Assembly: GCA_964550995.1 (NCBI GenBank)
Contig: CAZKAL010000003.1
Coordinates: forward strand, 1 to 35,305
Source of the DNA: an uncultured Candidatus Saccharibacteria bacterium
GTDB lineage: Bacteria > Patescibacteriota > Saccharimonadia > Saccharimonadales > SZUA-47
Direction: 5' to 3'
DNA: 35,305 nucleotides
Position 1 is the first letter of the stretch. The number at the start of each line of letters is the position of its first letter. Of the stretch, positions 1-20,649 are shown one piece after another. Below the pieces are notes generated by a model, which was not told the origin of the DNA, did no database searches, and saw only the letters and a list, made by a program, of their open reading frames with translations. Position numbers and translations under genes: made by a program.

Positions 1-217
1 TGTTGTGTCTACTTTTTGGCTTGGTAAGCGGTATATGTTGAGGGTTATGAAGAAGAGGGTTGAACGTGGCGAACATCCCTTCGCCGACATCTAAAACATT
101 TCAGGCAGAAATAATCCCTCTGCTGTCGAGCAGAGCTCGCCACTCTAGAGATTATTTCTTCTCTGGCTCTTTTGAATTTTTTTGTACCTCGATCTGCAGT
201 CGCCGTACGTTATGTAC

Positions 218-593
218 GACTCTTTTGCGTTCGGGCACAAAGAAAATCCAAAATAGCTCAGAGCTGAAGTGTTTTACACCCTTACGTCATTGTTAATGGG
301 ACTCTTTTGCGATACGCAGAGTTATGACAAAACTGACTCAAGCGTGAGCCTAAATATTATCAAATATTTATAGCTAGGTCCCTGCGTTTTTCAAAGAAGA
401 ACGAACAAATTGCGCTCGAGCACGTCCTAAATATCATCAAGAGACTATATGTTTGTTGTTAATAGAAGGAGTTCCGATATAGCTCCACATCTGAGCCTAG
501 ATGCGTCAAATTACATAAATAGAATGATTAGATACGGCTTGTTTGCGATCCGCAGTCAAAAATCTAATCTGACTCAAGGCAAGAATCCTAGAT
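218..593. repeat. Degenerate ~50-nt direct-repeat modules (mini-hairpin TTTGCG-N3-CGCAG followed 27 nt later by CTGACTCAAG) within a ~670-bp ORF-poor stretch
   Basis: An exact 12-mer GACTCTTTTGCG occurs at 218-229 and 300-311. Module B (306-355) and module C (542-593) share TTTGCGATMCGCAG (13/14) and CTGACTCAAG (10/10; 333-342 and 569-578) at the same 27-nt offset, then CCTARAT (349-355, 587-593). Weaker hairpin copies lie at 121-132 (TGCT-GTCG-AGCA), 224-238 and 411-420. GAGCCTARAT recurs at 345-355 and 494-503. Confidence 0.55.
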
Positions 594-946: not shown

Positions 947-1206
947 AAGAAGTTCGTTTTACGAAGATGTTTAAGAAAGATTTGATAAAACAATCACCAA
1001 AACTCCAACAAAGATTTTGGGAACGACTTCAATTATGGCAAGAGCAGCCATTAAATCCTCTGTTATACCACCACCTACTTAAAGGAGACTTCGCAGGGTT
1101 ACATAGCATTAATATTACTGGAGATGTTCGGGCAGTATACGATGAGTTTGATAACGAAATTGTGCTGTATGTCATGATAGGCTCGCACTCTCAGCTTTAT
1201 GGGTAA
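943..1206 (+). CDS. RelE/ParE-superfamily type II toxin (mRNA interferase-like)
   Basis: 87 aa. The LKGDFAGLHSINITGDVRAVY...VLYVMIGSHSQLY pattern is typical of RelE/StbE toxins. A GTG start overlaps the antitoxin stop. Small size and antitoxin-then-toxin order fit a type II TA module. Confidence 0.8.
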   Translation: MKEVRFTKMFKKDLIKQSPKLQQRFWERLQLWQEQPLNPLLYHHLLKGDFAGLHSINITGDVRAVYDEFDNEIVLYVMIGSHSQLYG

Positions 1207-2374
1207 AAAGAAGGTATATGTCGGTTTGAGTGGTGGGGTTGATAGCTCTTTAAGCGCGGCTTTGCTATTAGAGCAAGGTTACGACGTAGTTGGTGTATAT
1301 ATGAAGAACTGGTCGAAGGATCTACCTGGTTTTCCATGTCCTTGGAAAGAAGATTATCAGGATGCTAAACGTATCGCTGTACAGTTAGGTATACCTTTTG
1401 AGATGTTTGATTTTGAAAAGGATTATTTCGATAAGGTAGTCAAGTACATGCTTGATGGCTTTAAGTCTGGCATTACACCAAACCCGGATGTCATGTGCAA
1501 CCAAGAAATAAAATTCAAGCTGTTCTATGACTTAGCAAGAGAAAAAGGAGCGGATTTTATAGCCACTGGCCACTACTCCAGAGTGAGCCACCAGACAGAG
1601 CGAATTTCTTTGTCTGAGCCTGCTGTGCTCAGTCAACGTGCCGAAAAGCACGCCTCCTTGCGCGCATCAACTCATCCGCGAACTTCATCTCTGTCTGGCA
1701 CCTCACAGTCTATAGGAGATGCAAAACTATTACGTGCGGTGGATGAGAACAAGGACCAGACTTATTTTCTGTATAGAGTGTCTGAGGATGCACTAGCACA
1801 CACACTATTTCCTCTTGGGGACATGACAAAGCCAGAAGTTCGAGCTGAAGCTAAAAAAAGAGGCCTAATAACAGCCTCGAAGAAAGAATCTATGGGTATT
1901 TGTTTCGTCGGCAAGGTAGGGATAAAAGAGTTTCTCTCCCAGTACATTGAAACAAAACCAGGAGCTATCATTGAGCAAAACGGACTAAAAATTGGCGAGC
2001 ATAACGGTGCTATTTTCTACACAATTGGTCAACGCCATGGCCTTGATGTTGGCGGAGGTATGCCTTATTACGTAACGGGCAAGGACATGAAGAAAAATGA
2101 AGTATATGTTACAAGTGATATCTCGGATAATAAACTGTGGTCAGATAAAATTAAGCTAACAAATTGCCACTGGATTAACGCGACACCAAAAGTAGGCAAG
2201 ACATACCAAATACGTACTCGCCACCGTGCTCCACTTGCAATTTGCAACTTTGTCGCAATTTCAGATAAAACAACAGAAATTAAGTTAGAAGAGCCCCTAA
2301 GGGCGCTAACTCCTGGGCAGTCGGCTGTAATATACGACGGAAACATATGCCTTGGTGGTGGAATTATCGTATAA
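1199..2374 (+). CDS. mnmA: tRNA 2-thiouridine(34) synthase MnmA (carries an in-frame insertion)
   Basis: PP-loop GLSGGVDSS, catalytic Cys motifs NPDVMCNQEIKF and SMGICFVG, and DENKDQTYFLY. Colinear with MnmA/TrmU end to end except for extra residues after ATGHY. Confidence 0.95.
   Translation: MGKKKVYVGLSGGVDSSLSAALLLEQGYDVVGVYMKNWSKDLPGFPCPWKEDYQDAKRIAVQLGIPFEMFDFEKDYFDKVVKYMLDGFKSGITPNPDVMCNQEIKFKLFYDLAREKGADFIATGHYSRVSHQTERISLSEPAVLSQRAEKHASLRASTHPRTSSLSGTSQSIGDAKLLRAVDENKDQTYFLYRVSEDALAHTLFPLGDMTKPEVRAEAKKRGLITASKKESMGICFVGKVGIKEFLSQYIETKPGAIIEQNGLKIGEHNGAIFYTIGQRHGLDVGGGMPYYVTGKDMKKNEVYVTSDISDNKLWSDKIKLTNCHWINATPKVGKTYQIRTRHRAPLAICNFVAISDKTTEIKLEEPLRALTPGQSAVIYDGNICLGGGIIV
1591..1698 (+). 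repeat. 108-nt palindromic, GC-enriched element inserted in-frame in mnmA (RPE/MITE-like)
   Basis: Perfect 10-bp terminal inverted repeats CCAGACAGAG (1591-1600) and CTCTGTCTGG (1689-1698). Internal hairpins are CTGAGC/GCTCAG (1614-1619/1627-1632) and CGTGC/GCACG (1637-1641/1648-1652). Length is 36 codons. Deleting it leaves GHY-SRVSHTSQSIGDAK-LLRAVDENKDQ, close to the short spacer I recall for E. coli MnmA at this position. Confidence 0.55.
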
Positions 2375-4905: not shown

Positions 4906-6792
4906 ATGACAGCACAAGAAATACGTCGAGCCTATTTAAAGTTTTTTGAGGACAAGGGGCACGTGGTTATTCCACGAGCTCAGTTGGTACCCAAAGATGA
5001 TCCATCAACATTGTTTGTGGGCTCTGGGATGCAACCATTACTACCATATTTACTGGGTGAAAAGCACCCAAAAGGTGTGCGTTTAACTGATTCTCAAACC
5101 TCTTTTCGTGCTGGAGACATCGACGATGTAGGCGACAACAGACACACAACATTTTTTGAGATGCTGGGTAACTGGAGCCTGGGAGATTACTTTAAAAAAG
5201 ACCAGATTAGATGGTTTTTTGAATTTTTGGTTGGAGAAGTAGGTCTTGATCCTAATAAACTCTACGTTACATGTTTCATCGGAGATGAAAAAAGTGGCAT
5301 ACCAAAAGATCTAGAGTCAGCAGAAATATGGCAAGAATTATTTGCTGAGCAAGGGATAGATAACAAAATTGTTGAAATAGGTAGCGCAAAACAAGGCGAT
5401 AAGGTAGGTATGCAGGGTGGCCGAATATTCTACTATGACGACGGAGAAAACTGGTGGTCACGAGCCGGTGGTATAACTGAAACGCCAATTGGTGATCCAT
5501 GCGGGCCTGATAGTGAGGTTTTTTATGATTTTGGTGAAGAATTGCACGATAAGACTGAATGGGGCAAAGCTCACCCTGCCAATGATAGTGGGCGCTTTAT
5601 AGAGATTGGCAATCAAGTTTTCATGCAGTACAAACGTACAGAAACAGGATTTGAACCACTGCCTGAGCAAAACGTTGATTTCGGCGGGGGCCTAGAGCGT
5701 ATTGCCGCTGCCGCAATAGATAGCCCAGATGTGTTCAAAATCAGCATAATATGGCCGATTATTGAAAAATTACAGGATTTATCTGGCAAAAAGTACCAAG
5801 AATACACCGAAGATATGCGCGTAATTGCTGACCACCTGCGGGCTGCTATGTTCTTAGCAGTTGACGGGGTTAAACCGAGCAACAAAGAGCAGGGTTACGT
5901 CATGCGCCGATTAATGCGTCGGGCGATACTTAAGGCTTTTAATTTAGGGATTGAACAGAATTTTGTTCAAGAAATCGCCCCAGTTATAGCTAGTTTGTAT
6001 AAGTCTGATTTTCCTGAGGTATTGAAGGGTGAAGAGGAAATAGTGACGGTCTTAGTTAAAGAGGAAAAAGTTTTCAAACAAACATTACGAAAGGGCTTAC
6101 GAGAGTTTAGTAAGTTGGCTTCTGGTGGTTTAAACGGAGATTTGGTGTTCACGCTATATGATACGTATGGGTTTCCTGTAGAGCTTAGCACTGAAGAAGC
6201 AGAGAATCAGAACATTGATATCTCAGACGGATGGCGTGAGGAGTTTGAGGCCAAAATGAAAGAGCAACGGGAACGATCGCGGACTGCCGCAAAGGGTACT
6301 TTCAAGGGTGGACTGGGTGGTCATGAATTAATACATAAAAAATATCACACCGCCACACATTTGATGTACCAGGCTTTGCGTGATGTACTGGGCGAACATG
6401 TAGTTCAGCATGGATCAAATATTACTGCCGAACGACTACGATTTGATTTTAGTCACGGTGAGAAAATGAGCGATGATCAGAAAAAAGAAGTTGAGGACAT
6501 AGTAAATGAGCAAATCAACAAGGATCTTAAAGTTAGTTTTGCAGAATATCCAACTAGCGAAGCTACCGGAAAGCTTGGTGCACTAGGTCAATTTGGTGAT
6601 CGCTATGGCGATACGGTTAAGGTTTACACAATGATTGAGGACGGAGCTTCAAATCCATTTAGTTTTGAGATTTGTGGTGGACCACATGTTGACCACACGA
6701 TGCAATTGGCTGAAGGTGGCAAAAAATTTAAAATCCAAAAAGAACAATCTTCCTCAGCCGGCATCCGTAGAATCAAAGCTGTTCTTGTTTAA
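4906..6792 (+). CDS. alaS: Alanine--tRNA ligase, short form lacking the C-Ala domain
   Basis: The N-terminus MTAQEIRRAYLKFFEDKGH...GSGMQPL is typical of AlaRS. Editing-domain motifs HTATHLMYQAL and ICGGPHV are present. The protein ends right after GIRRIKAV, at 628 aa. Confidence 0.95.
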   Translation: MTAQEIRRAYLKFFEDKGHVVIPRAQLVPKDDPSTLFVGSGMQPLLPYLLGEKHPKGVRLTDSQTSFRAGDIDDVGDNRHTTFFEMLGNWSLGDYFKKDQIRWFFEFLVGEVGLDPNKLYVTCFIGDEKSGIPKDLESAEIWQELFAEQGIDNKIVEIGSAKQGDKVGMQGGRIFYYDDGENWWSRAGGITETPIGDPCGPDSEVFYDFGEELHDKTEWGKAHPANDSGRFIEIGNQVFMQYKRTETGFEPLPEQNVDFGGGLERIAAAAIDSPDVFKISIIWPIIEKLQDLSGKKYQEYTEDMRVIADHLRAAMFLAVDGVKPSNKEQGYVMRRLMRRAILKAFNLGIEQNFVQEIAPVIASLYKSDFPEVLKGEEEIVTVLVKEEKVFKQTLRKGLREFSKLASGGLNGDLVFTLYDTYGFPVELSTEEAENQNIDISDGWREEFEAKMKEQRERSRTAAKGTFKGGLGGHELIHKKYHTATHLMYQALRDVLGEHVVQHGSNITAERLRFDFSHGEKMSDDQKKEVEDIVNEQINKDLKVSFAEYPTSEATGKLGALGQFGDRYGDTVKVYTMIEDGASNPFSFEICGGPHVDHTMQLAEGGKKFKIQKEQSSSAGIRRIKAVLV

Positions 6793-6829
6793 TAGAATTA
6801 ATTGCTAAAATTTTTTGATTAACAATTCA

Positions 6830-6873
6830 AAAGCTGATTTAAAGCTGATTTAACTCAGCTTTAAATCAGCTTT
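6830..6873 (+). terminator. AT-rich 17-bp stem hairpin downstream of alaS (no U-tract)
   Basis: AAAGCTGATTTAAAGCT (6830-6846) pairs perfectly with AGCTTTAAATCAGCTTT (6857-6873). AAAGCTGATTTA is tandemly duplicated (6830-6841 and 6841-6852). The hairpin is followed by CGAAGC rather than a T run. Confidence 0.35.
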
Positions 6874-6968
6874 CGAAGCAAAAACAAATTGAGTATTGTA
6901 TTCAAGTTTTGGACTCATCCTCAAATTTACTATTTATCTCTGTTGCTGTGGTGTATACTAAAACGTAT

Positions 6969-12824: not shown

Positions 12825-14102
12825 ATGTTTGTAGATTCAGCAAAAGTTATGGTTCGGGCGGGCAAAGGCGGTAGTGGAATAATAAGCTTCCGCCACGAGC
12901 GCTATGTTTCACTTGGAGGACCTGACGGTGGCGATGGTGGGAATGGCGGAGACGTTGTATTTATAGCAAATTTCAACCAAAACACATTATCAAGATTCAG
13001 GATTAGTAAAGAATTAAAAGCAAGCGATGGCGCAAATGGCGCAAATGCAAAATGTCACGGTAAAAGAGGTAAAGATTTAGAGGTGTTGGTACCCGTTGGT
13101 ACTCAAGTGCGCGTAGGTGGAAAAACTATAGCCGATTTTACAGAAGATGGCCAAAGAGAAGTTATTGCGGTTGGAGGCAGAGGAGGATTTGGGAATGCCC
13201 ACTTTACGACTAGTGTTCGGCAAGCACCTAGAATTGCCGAAAAAGGAGATGATGGGGAAGCCTTTGAGCTAGAGCTTGAATTAAAAATCATTGCTGATGT
13301 TGGATTGGTGGGATTACCAAACGCCGGCAAAAGCACTTTTCTTGCTAGTACTAGTTCTGCAAAACCTAAAATTGCTAACTACCCGTTTACGACACTAAAC
13401 CCACATCTGGGCGTAGTAAAAGTAGCCAAAGACCAAGAACTATTAATGGCAGATATACCAGGCTTAATAGACGGAGCGAGTGAAGGAAAAGGGCTAGGAG
13501 ATGAATTTTTGCGACATGTTGAACGTACAAAGATTTTATTGCATATGATTGATTCTTATTCAGATGATATTGTACGGGATTATAAAATAATTCAGAAAGA
13601 ATTGAAAAACTATAGGGTAGATTTAAGTAAGAAACCACAAATTATCGCACTAACTAAGATTGATGGTCTTGATGCAGACATAGTGCAAGATCAAATCAAA
13701 ACACTTAAAAAAGTTTCAAAAAAAGCGGAAATATTTACTGTTTCTTCTATCAGTGGCGAAGGGTTAAAAAAATTACTGTATAAGCTATATGAAGTTACGG
13801 ATAAGCAAAGGATAGCCGAAGCTAAAAAAGAAGCAGAGGAAGACAGTAAAATTCCAGTTATTGGAGTTTCTGATGATGTTGAAGCCTGGAGTATAGAAGT
13901 TCAAAGGCGAAGAATAATTATAAGTGGTAAAAAAATCGAGCGTTTCGCTAATCGGACTGATTTTAACAGCGAAGAAGCGGTTAGTCGTCTGCGGGATATT
14001 ATGCGAAAAATGGGAATAATGCGAGACCTTGAGCGAAAAGATATAGAACTTGGAGCAAAAATATATTTTGCAGATAACCGGGAAAACTTCTTAGAATACT
14101 AG
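12825..14102 (+). CDS. obg: GTPase Obg/CgtA
   Basis: Glycine-rich Obg fold (GGPDGGDGGNGGDVVF), G1 GLPNAGKST, G3 DIPG, G4 TKID, and a C-terminal OCT-like extension. Confidence 0.95.
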   Translation: MFVDSAKVMVRAGKGGSGIISFRHERYVSLGGPDGGDGGNGGDVVFIANFNQNTLSRFRISKELKASDGANGANAKCHGKRGKDLEVLVPVGTQVRVGGKTIADFTEDGQREVIAVGGRGGFGNAHFTTSVRQAPRIAEKGDDGEAFELELELKIIADVGLVGLPNAGKSTFLASTSSAKPKIANYPFTTLNPHLGVVKVAKDQELLMADIPGLIDGASEGKGLGDEFLRHVERTKILLHMIDSYSDDIVRDYKIIQKELKNYRVDLSKKPQIIALTKIDGLDADIVQDQIKTLKKVSKKAEIFTVSSISGEGLKKLLYKLYEVTDKQRIAEAKKEAEEDSKIPVIGVSDDVEAWSIEVQRRRIIISGKKIERFANRTDFNSEEAVSRLRDIMRKMGIMRDLERKDIELGAKIYFADNRENFLEY

Positions 14103-17838: not shown

Positions 17839-20649
17839 ATGTCTGAGTCAATAGTAGTAAAAGGTGCCAGGGAGCATAACCTAAAGAATATTGATATTAC
17901 TATTCCTCGCCACAGCTTAACGGTAATTACGGGTTTAAGTGGATCTGGCAAATCGTCTCTTGCATTTGACACAATCTATGCAGAAGGCCAAAGGCGCTAC
18001 GTCGAGAGTTTAAGTGCTTATGCACGTCAATTTTTAGGTTTAATGGAAAAGCCTGATGTAGATCAAATCGACGGGCTAAGTCCTGCAATATCTATCGACC
18101 AGAAATCAACAAGTCGAAATCCACGTAGTACAGTGGCCACAGTCACTGAAATATACGACTATTTGCGTTTGCTTTACGCTCGCATAGGAACGGCGCATGG
18201 TCCAGACGGCGAGCCGATACATACAATGACAATTCAAGATATTTCTGGAGGTGTCGCCAACTTACCAAAGAAGCACAAGCTAATGATTTTGGCTCCTGTA
18301 GTTATTGATAAAAAGGGCGAACATGCACATATCCCAGAATTGTATATACGGCAGGGTTATGCCCGCGCTAGAGTTGACGGGGTTGTTTATTCGCTTCAAG
18401 AGTTCCCAACTCTTGATAAAAAATACAAACATAATATACAAATTGTAGTTGATCGTGTTGTAAATAACGAAGAACAGTCCAGTCGAATCTTTCAGGCTGT
18501 TGAGGATGGCTTACAACTAGCCGAAGGGCAACTGCTAGTTATTGATGTGGACAATAATGACGCTGAACACCCTTTCTCACAACGTTACTACAATCCAGAG
18601 TTTCCAGACTTTATAGCTCCTGAAATGGAACCAAGGACATTTAGCTTTAACAGTCCGCATGGAGCTTGCCTAGTGTGTACAGGTTTAGGAAATCGAAAAG
18701 TAGTTGACCCAGAATTGGTCTTACCGAACGGCAATTTGACTATCGCTGAGGGGGCAATTCGGCCTTACAATCGTATGACCCCAGATGCCTGGAACATGAA
18801 AAAAATGGCTGCTGTGGCTGATCGTTATGACTTTTCAATACATGTCAAAACATCTGATTTGACTGAGTCTCAGTTAGAAAAAATTCTATACGGTACGGGT
18901 GATGAAAAATACTCAGTAGCTCTTGGCAATGGACGACATTTTGATACAACATACGAGGGTGTAATTCCTAACCTTGAACGTCGCCATAAAGAAACTGACA
19001 GCGAATTTATGCGCCGAGAGATAGAACGATTTATGATAGAAAAACCTTGTCATGCTTGCAAAGGTAAAAGATTGAAACCAGAAGTTTTAGCGGTAACTGT
19101 AGCCAACCAGTCGATTGTAGATATTTGTGAGTTGAGCGTAGAAGATGCTGTTAAATTTTTTGTGAAAATTAAGTTTAGTGAAAGAGAAATGAAAATTGCT
19201 AAGCAAATCATTAAAGAAATCAATGAACGATTGGCCTTTTTGAATGAAGTGGGCTTAGGATATTTGACACTATTTCGTAGCGCAAATACATTGAGCGGAG
19301 GAGAGGCTCAGCGAATACGGCTTGCCACTCAGATAGGCTCAGGTCTTCAAGGAGTTTTATACGTACTAGACGAACCTTCAATTGGTCTACATCAAAGAGA
19401 CAATGGTCGATTGATAAATACACTCAAAAAATTAAGAGACATAGGTAATACAGTTATTGTGGTTGAACATGACGAAGAAACAATCCGTACAGCAGACTTT
19501 CTAGTAGACATTGGTCCTGGGGCAGGCGTTCATGGAGGGCATGTTGTAGCGAAGGGTACGCCTTCTCAGGTTGCAAAAAATAAAAAGAGCATTACCGGCC
19601 AGTATTTACGAGGAGAGCTGACAATTGATACGCCAAAAGTACGTAGGAAGGGCAACGGTAACTCCATTATAATTCGTGGAGCACGGGAACATAACTTGAA
19701 GAATATTGACGTCGAGATTCCTCTCGGGAAAATGATTGTCGTTAGTGGAGTATCAGGTAGCGGTAAGAGTACATTAATAAATGACATTGTCGCAAAAGAA
19801 CTACAGGTCAGATTGAATAGAGCCCATAAAGCGGTTGGTCGACATGATGATTTGGAAGGAATAGAAAACCTAGATAAAGTTATTATGATCGACCAGTCGC
19901 CCATCGGACGTACACCGCGGAGTAATCCAGCAACTTATGTTGGACTATTTACAGCTGTTAGAGATCTTTTTTCTAACACACCAGAGGCAAAAATCCGTGG
20001 TTATAAACCTGGGCGTTTTAGCTTCAATGTTAAAGGTGGCCGTTGCGAAAACTGTCAGGGCGATGGCATGATAAAGATTGAAATGCACTTTCTACCAGAC
20101 GTTTACGTGGAGTGTGAAGTATGTAAGGGCAAAAGATATAACAGCGAAGCATTAGAAATTCACTATAAAGGCAAAACCATATCTGACATATTAAATATGA
20201 CTTGCGAGCAAGGGTTAGAATTTTTTGAGAATGTTCCATCTATTGCTAGAAAACTTGAAACATTAGTACAAGTTGGACTCGGGTATATGCATCTCGGACA
20301 ATCAGCAACAACATTAAGCGGTGGTGAAGCTCAACGAGTTAAGTTAGCAACAGAATTATCAAAAAGAGCAACTGGTAGAACTTTGTATGTGCTAGATGAA
20401 CCGACGACTGGACTACATATGGACGACGTAAAAAGGCTAATGGAAGTTTTGCATGCTCTAGTAGACACCGGAAATAGCATGATTATAATTGAGCATAATT
20501 TGGACGTTATAAAATCTGCCGATCACATAATAGATATGGGTCCAGAGGGTGGTAATGGTGGTGGCACAATAGTCGCTGAGGGTACTCCAGAGATGATAGC
20601 TAAAAATAAGATGTCCTACACCGGAAAATACTTGTCAACAGCTTTATAA
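17839..20649 (+). CDS. uvrA: Excinuclease ABC subunit A
   Basis: Two ABC modules (GLSGSGKSS and GVSGSGKST; LSGGEAQR twice) and zinc-finger CxxC pairs; 936 aa. TATAAT at 17825-17830 lies 8 nt upstream. Confidence 0.97.
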   Translation: MSESIVVKGAREHNLKNIDITIPRHSLTVITGLSGSGKSSLAFDTIYAEGQRRYVESLSAYARQFLGLMEKPDVDQIDGLSPAISIDQKSTSRNPRSTVATVTEIYDYLRLLYARIGTAHGPDGEPIHTMTIQDISGGVANLPKKHKLMILAPVVIDKKGEHAHIPELYIRQGYARARVDGVVYSLQEFPTLDKKYKHNIQIVVDRVVNNEEQSSRIFQAVEDGLQLAEGQLLVIDVDNNDAEHPFSQRYYNPEFPDFIAPEMEPRTFSFNSPHGACLVCTGLGNRKVVDPELVLPNGNLTIAEGAIRPYNRMTPDAWNMKKMAAVADRYDFSIHVKTSDLTESQLEKILYGTGDEKYSVALGNGRHFDTTYEGVIPNLERRHKETDSEFMRREIERFMIEKPCHACKGKRLKPEVLAVTVANQSIVDICELSVEDAVKFFVKIKFSEREMKIAKQIIKEINERLAFLNEVGLGYLTLFRSANTLSGGEAQRIRLATQIGSGLQGVLYVLDEPSIGLHQRDNGRLINTLKKLRDIGNTVIVVEHDEETIRTADFLVDIGPGAGVHGGHVVAKGTPSQVAKNKKSITGQYLRGELTIDTPKVRRKGNGNSIIIRGAREHNLKNIDVEIPLGKMIVVSGVSGSGKSTLINDIVAKELQVRLNRAHKAVGRHDDLEGIENLDKVIMIDQSPIGRTPRSNPATYVGLFTAVRDLFSNTPEAKIRGYKPGRFSFNVKGGRCENCQGDGMIKIEMHFLPDVYVECEVCKGKRYNSEALEIHYKGKTISDILNMTCEQGLEFFENVPSIARKLETLVQVGLGYMHLGQSATTLSGGEAQRVKLATELSKRATGRTLYVLDEPTTGLHMDDVKRLMEVLHALVDTGNSMIIIEHNLDVIKSADHIIDMGPEGGNGGGTIVAEGTPEMIAKNKMSYTGKYLSTAL

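Follow-up and report, generated by a model that had tools for sequence, protein, structure and literature searches.

How an essential reading frame comes to hold a long palindrome, and what keeps the palindrome there, is the question raised by mnmA, the gene of the tRNA 2-thiouridine(34) synthase, in an uncultured Candidatus Saccharibacteria bacterium. The gene lies on contig CAZKAL010000003.1 (assembly GCA_964550995.1), whose 35,305 nt were analyzed as a whole and are referred to below as "the window", and it is interrupted in frame by a palindromic block that solved MnmA proteins do not have. We propose that this block, at positions 1583-1706, is probably a tolerated, in-frame copy of a dispersed family of structured palindromes, named here the A element, that was inserted into mnmA long ago. 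A preliminary description of this DNA, made from its letters, had suggested an insertion of the kind known as Rickettsia palindromic elements (RPEs), and the idea of an RPE-like, possibly mobile element in a new phylum is largely supported by the results described here.

A discrete palindrome in the mnmA reading frame

The inverted repeats, length, GC content and internal hairpins previously described for the block were all recovered. The two perfect 10-bp arms, CCAGACAGAG and CTCTGTCTGG (Table 1), enclose 108 nt or 36 codons (1591-1698) with a GC content of 0.53-0.55, compared to 0.40 in the window, and with internal hairpins formed by CTGAGCC/GCTCAG (about 1614-1632) and CGTGC/GCACG (1637-1652). 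These arms had been placed correctly, but the inverted repeat continues outward to 18 nt with 83% complementarity (1583-1600 with 1689-1706), and the natural boundaries of the element are those of this closing helix, 1583-1706, rather than 1591-1698. As had been predicted, conceptual removal of 1591-1698 restores a spacer: reading the sequence, SRVSHTSQSIGDAK is left in frame. When folded as RNA, the segment 1581-1708 reaches -47.8 kcal/mol (z = -4.3), and none of 200 shuffled sequences was as stable. The 10-mer pair is weak evidence when considered alone, with 15 of 100 shuffles giving at least three matches when one mismatch is allowed, so that the weight of the argument rests on the z-score of the fold and on the covariation between species. 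Counting the pairs in the longest rod of each minimum free energy (MFE) structure had no discriminating power.

The identity of the host gene is clear. Pfam domains PF03054, PF20259 and PF20258 were found on P0001, a protein identical to the window MnmA, and solved MnmA structures (2hma from S. pneumoniae, 2der from E. coli, and 9hlv/9hln) align to residues 3-132 and 173-390, showing that about 40 residues of the window protein are almost without counterpart, in agreement with the claim that canonical MnmA lacks the insert.

Covariance models detect dispersed copies in intergenic spacers

BLASTN (word sizes 7 and 9) and nhmmer searches with the element, made on the window as well as on 1.5 Mb of related loci (designated by L and a number), gave matches at the mnmA site only. 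These were false negatives: the paralogues, at 32-63% identity, are too divergent for such searches and were detected by covariance models alone. A model built from the seven orthologous mnmA copies only (R1; window, L001, L003, L004, L005, L086 and L087) detected nine further full-length copies outside mnmA, with scores of 32-87 bits, in 1.45 Mb of related loci, or about 20 kb for each genome. When all 16 copies were used for a second model (R2), the non-mnmA copies rose to 15, located in 12 Saccharibacteria genomes. This makes 22 copies at 16 loci, 7 of them in mnmA and the other 15 intergenic, and 2 of the 22 belong to the window. The scores of the window mnmA copy itself are 112.6 (R1) and 112.9 bits (R2). 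The element thus belongs to a dispersed family, as had been anticipated.

The second copy of the window is intergenic: R2 matches positions 92-281 with 38 bits (E ~1e-9, filters off), and a strong local fold is found at 149-275 within it. A decayed copy had been suspected at about 113-170, and a copy is indeed present there, but the base-by-base match that had been pointed out is not the homologous one: the covariance model aligns CTGCTGTCGAGCAG of the upstream copy to a 5' hairpin domain that the mnmA copy does not have. A-like fragments further downstream (Table 1), with GACTCTTTTGCG at 218 and 300, TTTGCGAT(A/C)CGCAG.. at 306 and 542 and TGCGCTCGAGCA at 411, are below significance with R2. 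Intergenic copies, which lie in short spacers, commonly begin at the stop codon of the gene before them or overlap it, and we counted, from hit strands and flanking open reading frames (ORFs), 13 copies that are co-oriented with the neighbouring genes and 2 that are not.

Sequence identity is 56-82% among the mnmA copies, only 42-57% between mnmA and intergenic copies of the same genome, and 32-63% among intergenic copies, even within one genome (45-57% for the four copies of L008 and 46% for the two of L027). The clustering of the mnmA copies by identity argues for one old insertion, while the mutual divergence of intergenic copies even inside a single genome argues against a recent burst of copying. 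A metagenome scan with a 23-base core pattern brought two more copies only (L086 and L087), both at the mnmA site; the core pattern, being derived from mnmA copies, is biased against paralogues.

Some spacers were found to be occupied repeatedly. The one between a LysM/CHAP gene and obg is occupied by a palindromic element in four genomes, with two families and both orientations represented (L024 14285-14458, minus strand; L008 20775-20947, plus strand; L044 18174-18273, plus strand; L068 11651-11764, minus strand), and the one directly upstream of mnmA carries A copies in L003, L037 and L014, the intergenic copy of the window being located 1.1 kb upstream. As far as sequence comparison goes, these recurrent sites suggest either orthology with inversion or targeted insertion.

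Base pairing is preserved by compensatory changes

The RNAalifold consensus of the seven mnmA copies, aligned with MAFFT (alignment A4), contains 43 pairs in 7 helices, with 93% of the pair cells paired. Double-sided changes were found in 13 of these 43 pairs, versus 5.2 +/- 1.6 in column shuffles (0 of 500 shuffles reached 13), and sliding partners gave at most 5 double-sided pairs in the same alignment. The hairpins that had been proposed are borne out by the z-score of the fold and by compensation. In an alignment of all 22 copies, biased towards structure because it was fitted to the covariance model, 90% of the cells are paired compared to 62% after shuffling, and 37 of the 43 pairs display compensatory change. 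Compensation is visible in the closing arms, with CAGACAGAG/CTCTGTCTG in the window becoming CAGACGAAG/CTTCGTCTG in L005 (two pairs), and in the apical stem, with CGTGC/GCACG in the window becoming CGTAC/GTACG in L004. At a compensated pair of the apical hairpin, 6 of the 7 mnmA copies have GC and 1 has AU; for the 22 copies, the counts are 15 AU and 6 GC. The 5' hairpin of the long form (xxxCGGC-NNN-GCCGxxx) covaries in five copies. The closing helices vary in sequence from copy to copy and are complementary within each copy. Overall, a closing helix and a long hairpin, bulged and with conserved motifs inside it, make up the family fold, to which a 5' hairpin domain is added in some copies; the window mnmA copy is of the short form, without the 5' hairpin domain of about 44 nt that is present in 5 of the 7 orthologous mnmA copies.

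Conservation by codon position points in the same direction. Among the window, L001, L003 and L004, identity at the three codon positions is 0.70/0.81/0.62 in the core of the insert, versus 0.81/0.93/0.42 and 0.77/0.86/0.38 in the flanking parts of mnmA. Synonymous sites of the insert are thus unusually conserved and its amino-acid-determining sites less conserved than those of the enzyme proper, indicating a constraint on the nucleic acid rather than on the protein. We infer that pairing is kept by such a constraint, which might be on RNA stability or processing or on the maintenance of a DNA palindrome. Searches of Rfam 15 (4227 families) gave no relevant match for the mnmA copy (E up to 10), the L027 copies (E up to 1) or the window (gathering threshold); SNORD35 and OxyS were the only matches, both due to chance and below the gathering score.

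The insert is open in the gene frame and predicted to be a disordered loop

The mnmA gene was intact in all 86 genes examined. None of the 21 distinct long inserts at this site has a stop codon in the gene frame, whereas the +1 frame is free of stops in 4 of them and the +2 frame in 1. The lengths of the inserts examined are all multiples of three, and the whole pattern is one that is expected only under translation. In an AlphaFold2 model of the window protein (m5ec61ca1f799; pTM 0.80), residues 134-169 have a pLDDT below 50 and no secondary structure, so that the insert is predicted to form a disordered surface loop at the tip of a beta-hairpin of the N-terminal PP-loop domain, consistent with the surface loop that had been considered from the start. 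A profile search of 5.8 billion proteins did not find the insert peptide in other proteins (40 word candidates, none of which scored). In L092, which is 94% identical overall, at least 8 of 24 amino-acid differences fall within residues 127-148, and this concentration suggests that the peptide is weakly constrained. It may well be functionally neutral.

In L087, about 28 nt are missing from mnmA just past the element (around 330-370; ..GLFMA|FCIELQ..*), resulting in a frameshift: the copy is a pseudogene or, alternatively, its 1.3-kb contig is misassembled.

The insertion is old and patchily distributed

We aligned 120 Saccharibacteria MnmA proteins, whose baseline at this site is ATGHYAxTxDGKLLxAxDxN, and collected 80 species-representative mnmA loci with 10-kb flanks (L006-L085). 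The window peptide motif SEPxVL..R...H.SLRAS.HP..SS was found again in P0002, P0023, P0105 and P0119 (encoded by L005, L004, L001 and L003, respectively), and the A insert is common to at least seven lineages, with MnmA identities of only 67-74% between them (68-74% relative to the window protein). The idea of a private, recent insertion must consequently be abandoned: the mnmA copy is old and orthologous. The same insert in distant lineages had been regarded as a sign of an ancestral protein loop and, formally, it does occur there, but its nucleotide-level conservation and its intergenic paralogues identify it as an element rather than as such a loop.

When the insert is masked, a tree of 203 MnmA proteins shows those with and those without an insert interspersed. 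The closest relatives of the window MnmA (82-84% identity) have no insert or a different one, the A-bearing proteins being 68-74% identical to it. Alleles also appear to have been exchanged at this very site. Compared to the window (1199-2374), mnmA of L092 (810-1985) has a left arm like that of L005 and a right arm like that of the window, with 15 substitutions in 1577-1638 and none beyond, and by this sequence pattern L092 is a recombinant with a breakpoint inside the element. In a Nanosynbacter-like clade (about 90% nucleotide identity), three alleles coexist at the mnmA site: an empty one (L084, L062, L056, L063 and L066), one of 114 nt (L039 6790-6906, L045, L047 and L048) and one of 174 nt (L050 and L064 10373-10567). 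From 60 nt right of the insert onward, the empty L066 and the filled L047 are identical for about 1.5 kb, and to the left of the insert they differ by about 8%, indicating that recombination took place at the mnmA site. We considered whether homologous recombination between distant lineages had brought in the insert along with its flanks, and rejected this, the third-position identity of the flanks being at background (0.38-0.42).

As a separate observation, L092 carries a gene for an rve-family integrase downstream of mnmA instead of the gene for an HD-domain protein.

One codon position of mnmA gathers unrelated inserts

The preliminary description had not anticipated that this site is a general insertion hot spot. 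About 40% of the 203 MnmA orthologues carry an insert at exactly this position, with 3-58 extra residues of highly varied sequences. Most of the long inserts, but not all, fold as one rod (z from -1.6 to -9.6, the strongest being that of L064), a few being different in this respect, and their GC content is usually 5-12 points above that of the locus. Many are unrelated to one another, for example in L064 (10373-10567), L061 (10373-10519), L015 (10373-10519), L009 (10376-10489), L053, L055 and L032, and the possibility that those of L064, L061, L015 and L009 are divergent A elements was rejected, as R2 did not match them with filters off.

A covariance model of the 114-nt Nanosynbacter insert (R3), which defines a B family, detected an intergenic relative in another genome, upstream of obg (L068 11651-11764, minus strand, 45 bits), that shares the basal stem (GGGTCCTG..CGGTCCGCCCC / GGGCGCTGCCCCGCC) and has a different but compensated apical stem. 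Since the A and B families both have intergenic copies, at least two unrelated families of dispersed palindromes have reached the same codon position. No copy of either family was found within any ORF other than mnmA in the 1.45 Mb of loci searched. Other inserts are made of heptanucleotide repeats: (AGATCTC)4 facing (CAAGATC)4 in L091 (1650-1740, z = -7.2), (ACTCAAA)3 in L005 (about 668-690) and (AAAAAGC)4 in L017 (about 2690-2720). The gain or loss of a heptanucleotide unit would shift the frame, so that phase variation of mnmA is conceivable; a family of NPKSEIRNPKS peptides, considered here as peptides only, may correspond to another 7-nt repeat.

Among 22 orthologous gene families of the same loci, internal inserts of at least 20 aa are numerous only in mnmA (18) and alaS (9). 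Those of alaS are mostly not hairpins and the other gene families have no hairpin inserts. A second variable insertion point is thus located in alaS at alignment column 581, with 21-37 extra residues in nine genomes, and the insert of L059 (about 13930-14040) has a GC content of 0.62 and a perfect 12-bp hairpin.

It was also observed that the conserved mnmA codons for ATGH (1565-1576, GCCACTGGCCAC) resemble the 5' closing-helix sequence of mnmA copies about 24 nt downstream (GCCACTGGAC and GCGACTGGAC; element ends at L001 10385-10396 and L004 1452-1462). This resemblance in sequence may be due to chance or may be a clue to targeting or microhomology.

How the insert may have arisen and what may keep it

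The A element has a long form of about 170 nt and a short form of about 124 nt, and resides mostly in short intergenic spacers. According to the reading that we favour, one copy would have entered mnmA between the ATGHY and LLxAxDxNKDQ motifs, in frame and free of stop codons, by an event that was presumably transposition- or duplication-like. It would then be transcribed and translated with mnmA as a disordered loop of 36-43 residues rich in Ser, Thr, Arg and Pro that the enzyme tolerates, and this old insertion would have been inherited, probably swapped by homologous recombination among several Saccharimonadales lineages, and lost or replaced elsewhere.

Several observations weigh against this reading. 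No target-site duplication flanks any of the 21 copies inspected, no conserved terminal sequence is found among the copies, and no parent insertion sequence or partner transposase was identified; without target-site duplications and conserved termini, the A element is not a classical miniature inverted-repeat transposable element (MITE). Its mobility is deduced from dispersal alone, copies within a genome are as divergent as copies from different genomes, and copy counts cover about 20 kb per genome. The RPE-like, selfish character proposed at the outset therefore stands as far as an in-frame, dispersed palindrome is concerned, but recent mobility or transposition is unsupported, given the lack of target-site duplications and the 45-57% identity within one genome. 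In addition, the patchy distribution requires many losses or allele exchange. Pairing is not always maintained either, the fold of L092 reaching -27.7 versus -47.8 kcal/mol for that of the window, and the mnmA hairpins do not stand out when fixed windows of 150 nt are scanned with GC correction (z from -0.6 to -3.2), a GC-regressed MFE scan placing other intergenic palindromes far above them. Finally, counts of G-U and A-C mismatches (10 versus 12 in one count, and 31 versus 21 for the intergenic copies) display no clear strand asymmetry, so that constraints acting on RNA and on DNA are indistinguishable. The family resembles either an RNA-type structural family or a set of very old palindromes maintained for their structure.

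If the fold acted as RNA, the A element could be a functional cis-acting module located after genes, for stabilisation, processing or termination, and the copy in mnmA would be kept because its fold regulates the mRNA (through its stability, its cleavage by RNase III or the pausing of ribosomes between domains), the peptide being a by-product. We consider this unlikely, even if a good part of the evidence fits: covariation is strong in every helix and unpaired motifs are conserved, closing helices are free in sequence yet always complementary as in RNA families and unlike transposon ends, orientation follows transcription 13:2 by our own count, very old intergenic copies (32-63% identity) still fold, third codon positions are conserved in the mnmA copy, and one U-G pair is kept in 5 of the 7 mnmA copies. 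Against it, G-U is not clearly in excess of A-C, L092 gets by with an arm that is half replaced and a fold that is far weaker, a U-tract past the apical hairpin is inconsistent among copies and an Rfam match is absent. Moreover, many orthologues lack the insert or carry unrelated ones at the site, showing that no specific RNA fold is needed for mnmA expression. That last diversity (3-58 residues in about 40% of the 203 orthologues), together with the inserts that are simple heptanucleotide repeats and with the restriction to mnmA among 22 neighbouring gene families, which hints at selection for a long loop, would rather suit a lineage-specific loop grown in place at a hypervariable hairpin of MnmA and selected for its length or charge, its palindromy being a side-effect of template switching or inverted duplication and its similarity to intergenic sequences incidental. 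Such an origin is highly improbable: covariance model matches to intergenic copies reach 32-140 bits over the full model length with the same helices, the B family likewise has an intergenic copy at 45 bits, third positions are more conserved in the insert than in the gene, and the peptide evolves fast in the close relative L092.

Removal or skipping of the insert, through excision at the RNA level or translational bypassing as in T4 gene 60 or mitochondrial byp elements, would account for a stable hairpin with matched flanks and for GC-rich inserts in an AT-rich genome, but we give it almost no credit, as all inserts examined are multiples of three and stop-free in the gene frame with the other frames mostly closed, and as no ribozyme or intron family was matched. 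More specific candidates were dismissed: an integron attC site and an IS200/IS605 or REP-RAYT element (the copies have a closing helix, and neither R'/R'' core sites nor a conserved motif of the GTAG type were seen), and an anticodon-loop mimic for MnmA autoregulation (antisense loops UUUUCG/UUGUCG occur in two copies and are not conserved in others). Beyond the tolerated insertion that we favour, a bolder proposal, possible at best, is that A and at least one unrelated B family are undescribed structure-defined modules under selection for pairing, that the mnmA hairpin tip is a targeted or positively selected landing site where palindromes and heptanucleotide repeats would modulate or phase-vary mnmA and so translation, and that the breakpoints observed would result from palindrome-stimulated allele exchange in naturally competent populations.

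Comparison with known repeats and significance

RPEs are found in frame in conserved housekeeping genes as well as in intergenic regions, and they are translated into an extra surface peptide (PMC10969869, a review that also covers intragenic MITE fusions). Like them, the A element is a 100-170-nt hairpin-forming repeat that is both intergenic and in frame in a housekeeping gene, with a peptide at a fold-compatible surface position and with old insertions common to related species. The likeness is one of features, as RPEs belong to another phylum and a relationship in sequence is not expected. RPEs also occupy dozens of genes, compared to mnmA only for the A element in the part of each genome sampled, their copies are far less divergent, and unrelated inserts at one same site are not a described RPE feature.

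Correia/CREE, ERIC, BOX, RUP, SPRITE and REP/BIME sequences are, like the A element, small non-coding hairpin repeats in spacers by gene ends, and such MITE-like and intergenic repeats sometimes extend or fuse with ORFs. As with SPRITE, some A copies resemble a terminator-type hairpin. Unlike MITE-like repeats, the A element has no conserved terminal inverted repeats, target-site duplication, high-identity copies or cognate transposase, and it far exceeds REP in length and complexity. In fungal mitochondrial genes, byp elements and GC-rich palindromic clusters are also GC-rich palindromes in an AT-rich genome that coding genes survive; the ribosome skips byp elements, for which keeping the frame is not required, unlike the inserts at the mnmA site, which are all in frame and open. 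With structured RNAs of the Rfam type, the A element shares helices defined by covariation, conserved unpaired motifs and a closing stem of free sequence, but it differs from these in having several copies per 20 kb, one of them inside an ORF.

Textbooks have presented in-frame selfish DNA in proteins as peculiar to Rickettsia. Its occurrence in Saccharibacteria, which belong to the candidate phyla radiation (CPR, or Patescibacteria), would, if true, imply an independent origin in reduced genomes. Full-text literature searches returned no paper on such elements in Saccharibacteria or CPR, in line with what had been surmised, and an in-frame palindromic repeat in a protein gene is apparently new for Saccharibacteria. 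This structure-conserved family and two covariance models can be used to annotate CPR intergenic regions. What was not expected is the site specificity, with one codon position of an essential gene gathering unrelated hairpin and repeat inserts and with recombination mosaics centred there. It opens to test the birth of protein loops from non-coding repeats, long palindromes as recombination hot spots in naturally competent episymbionts, and the tuning of mnmA expression.

Features of the window and other palindromes

Table 1. Positions of mnmA, of the two A copies and of related features in the window
Feature	Position	Strand	Basis
mnmA (tRNA 2-thiouridine(34) synthase) coding sequence, 391 aa, host gene	1199-2374	+	ORF; PDB MnmA matches (E 5e-99)
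A element, in-frame short-form copy, GTGAG..CCAGACAGAG to CTCTGTCTGG..CTCAC	1583-1706	+	Inverted repeat, fold, covariance model
Left arm of perfect 10-bp inverted repeat, CCAGACAGAG	1591-1600	+	
Right arm of perfect 10-bp inverted repeat, CTCTGTCTGG	1689-1698	+	
Apical hairpin CGTGC-CGAAAA-GCACG, helix 7 of the family fold	1637-1652	+	Fold, compensation in L004
Codons for residues 134-169, predicted disordered, between beta-strands 128-130 and 176-178	1598-1705	+	AlphaFold2
Intergenic long-form A copy, closing helix TAAAACATTTCAG (92-104) with CTGAAGTGTTTTA (264-276)	92-276	+	R2, inverted repeats
5' hairpin domain of the intergenic copy	107-131 with 135-159	+	Inverted repeats
Apical hairpin of the intergenic copy, CGTACGTTATGTACG	204-218	+	
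Degenerate A-like fragments, direct-repeat families D1, D5, D6 and D7	300-578	+	

Immediately upstream of mnmA, the window carries a type II toxin-antitoxin pair composed of a RelB-like antitoxin (671-946; a weak match of 18.7 bits, below the Pfam cut-off) and of a YafQ/ParE-family toxin (943-1206; 39.7 bits) whose stop codon lies within mnmA, with an overlap of 8 nt at the mnmA start. L090 and L092 are arranged in the same way.

Stronger intergenic palindromes, unrelated in sequence to the A element, were noticed in the related loci, with stems of 25-36 bp, energies down to -92 kcal/mol and GC-corrected z-scores down to -9.4 (L029 9001-9150, L068 9841-9990, L021 18691-18840, L016 11011-11160, L065 11041-11190, L032 5041-5190 and L058 1831-1980). 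Several of these directly adjoin mnmA. In the window, a stem of about 22 bp (GCGGTTGGTCGACATGATGATTT / AAGTTATTATGATCGACCAGTCGC) was found at 19831-19907 inside a 936-aa UvrA-like ORF (17839-20649), with a GC-corrected z-score of -3.7, and a perfect 19-bp AT-rich hairpin (AGCTGATTTAAAGCTGA..) lies at 6828-6873, between ORFs ending at 6792 and starting at 6909, where it is probably a terminator.

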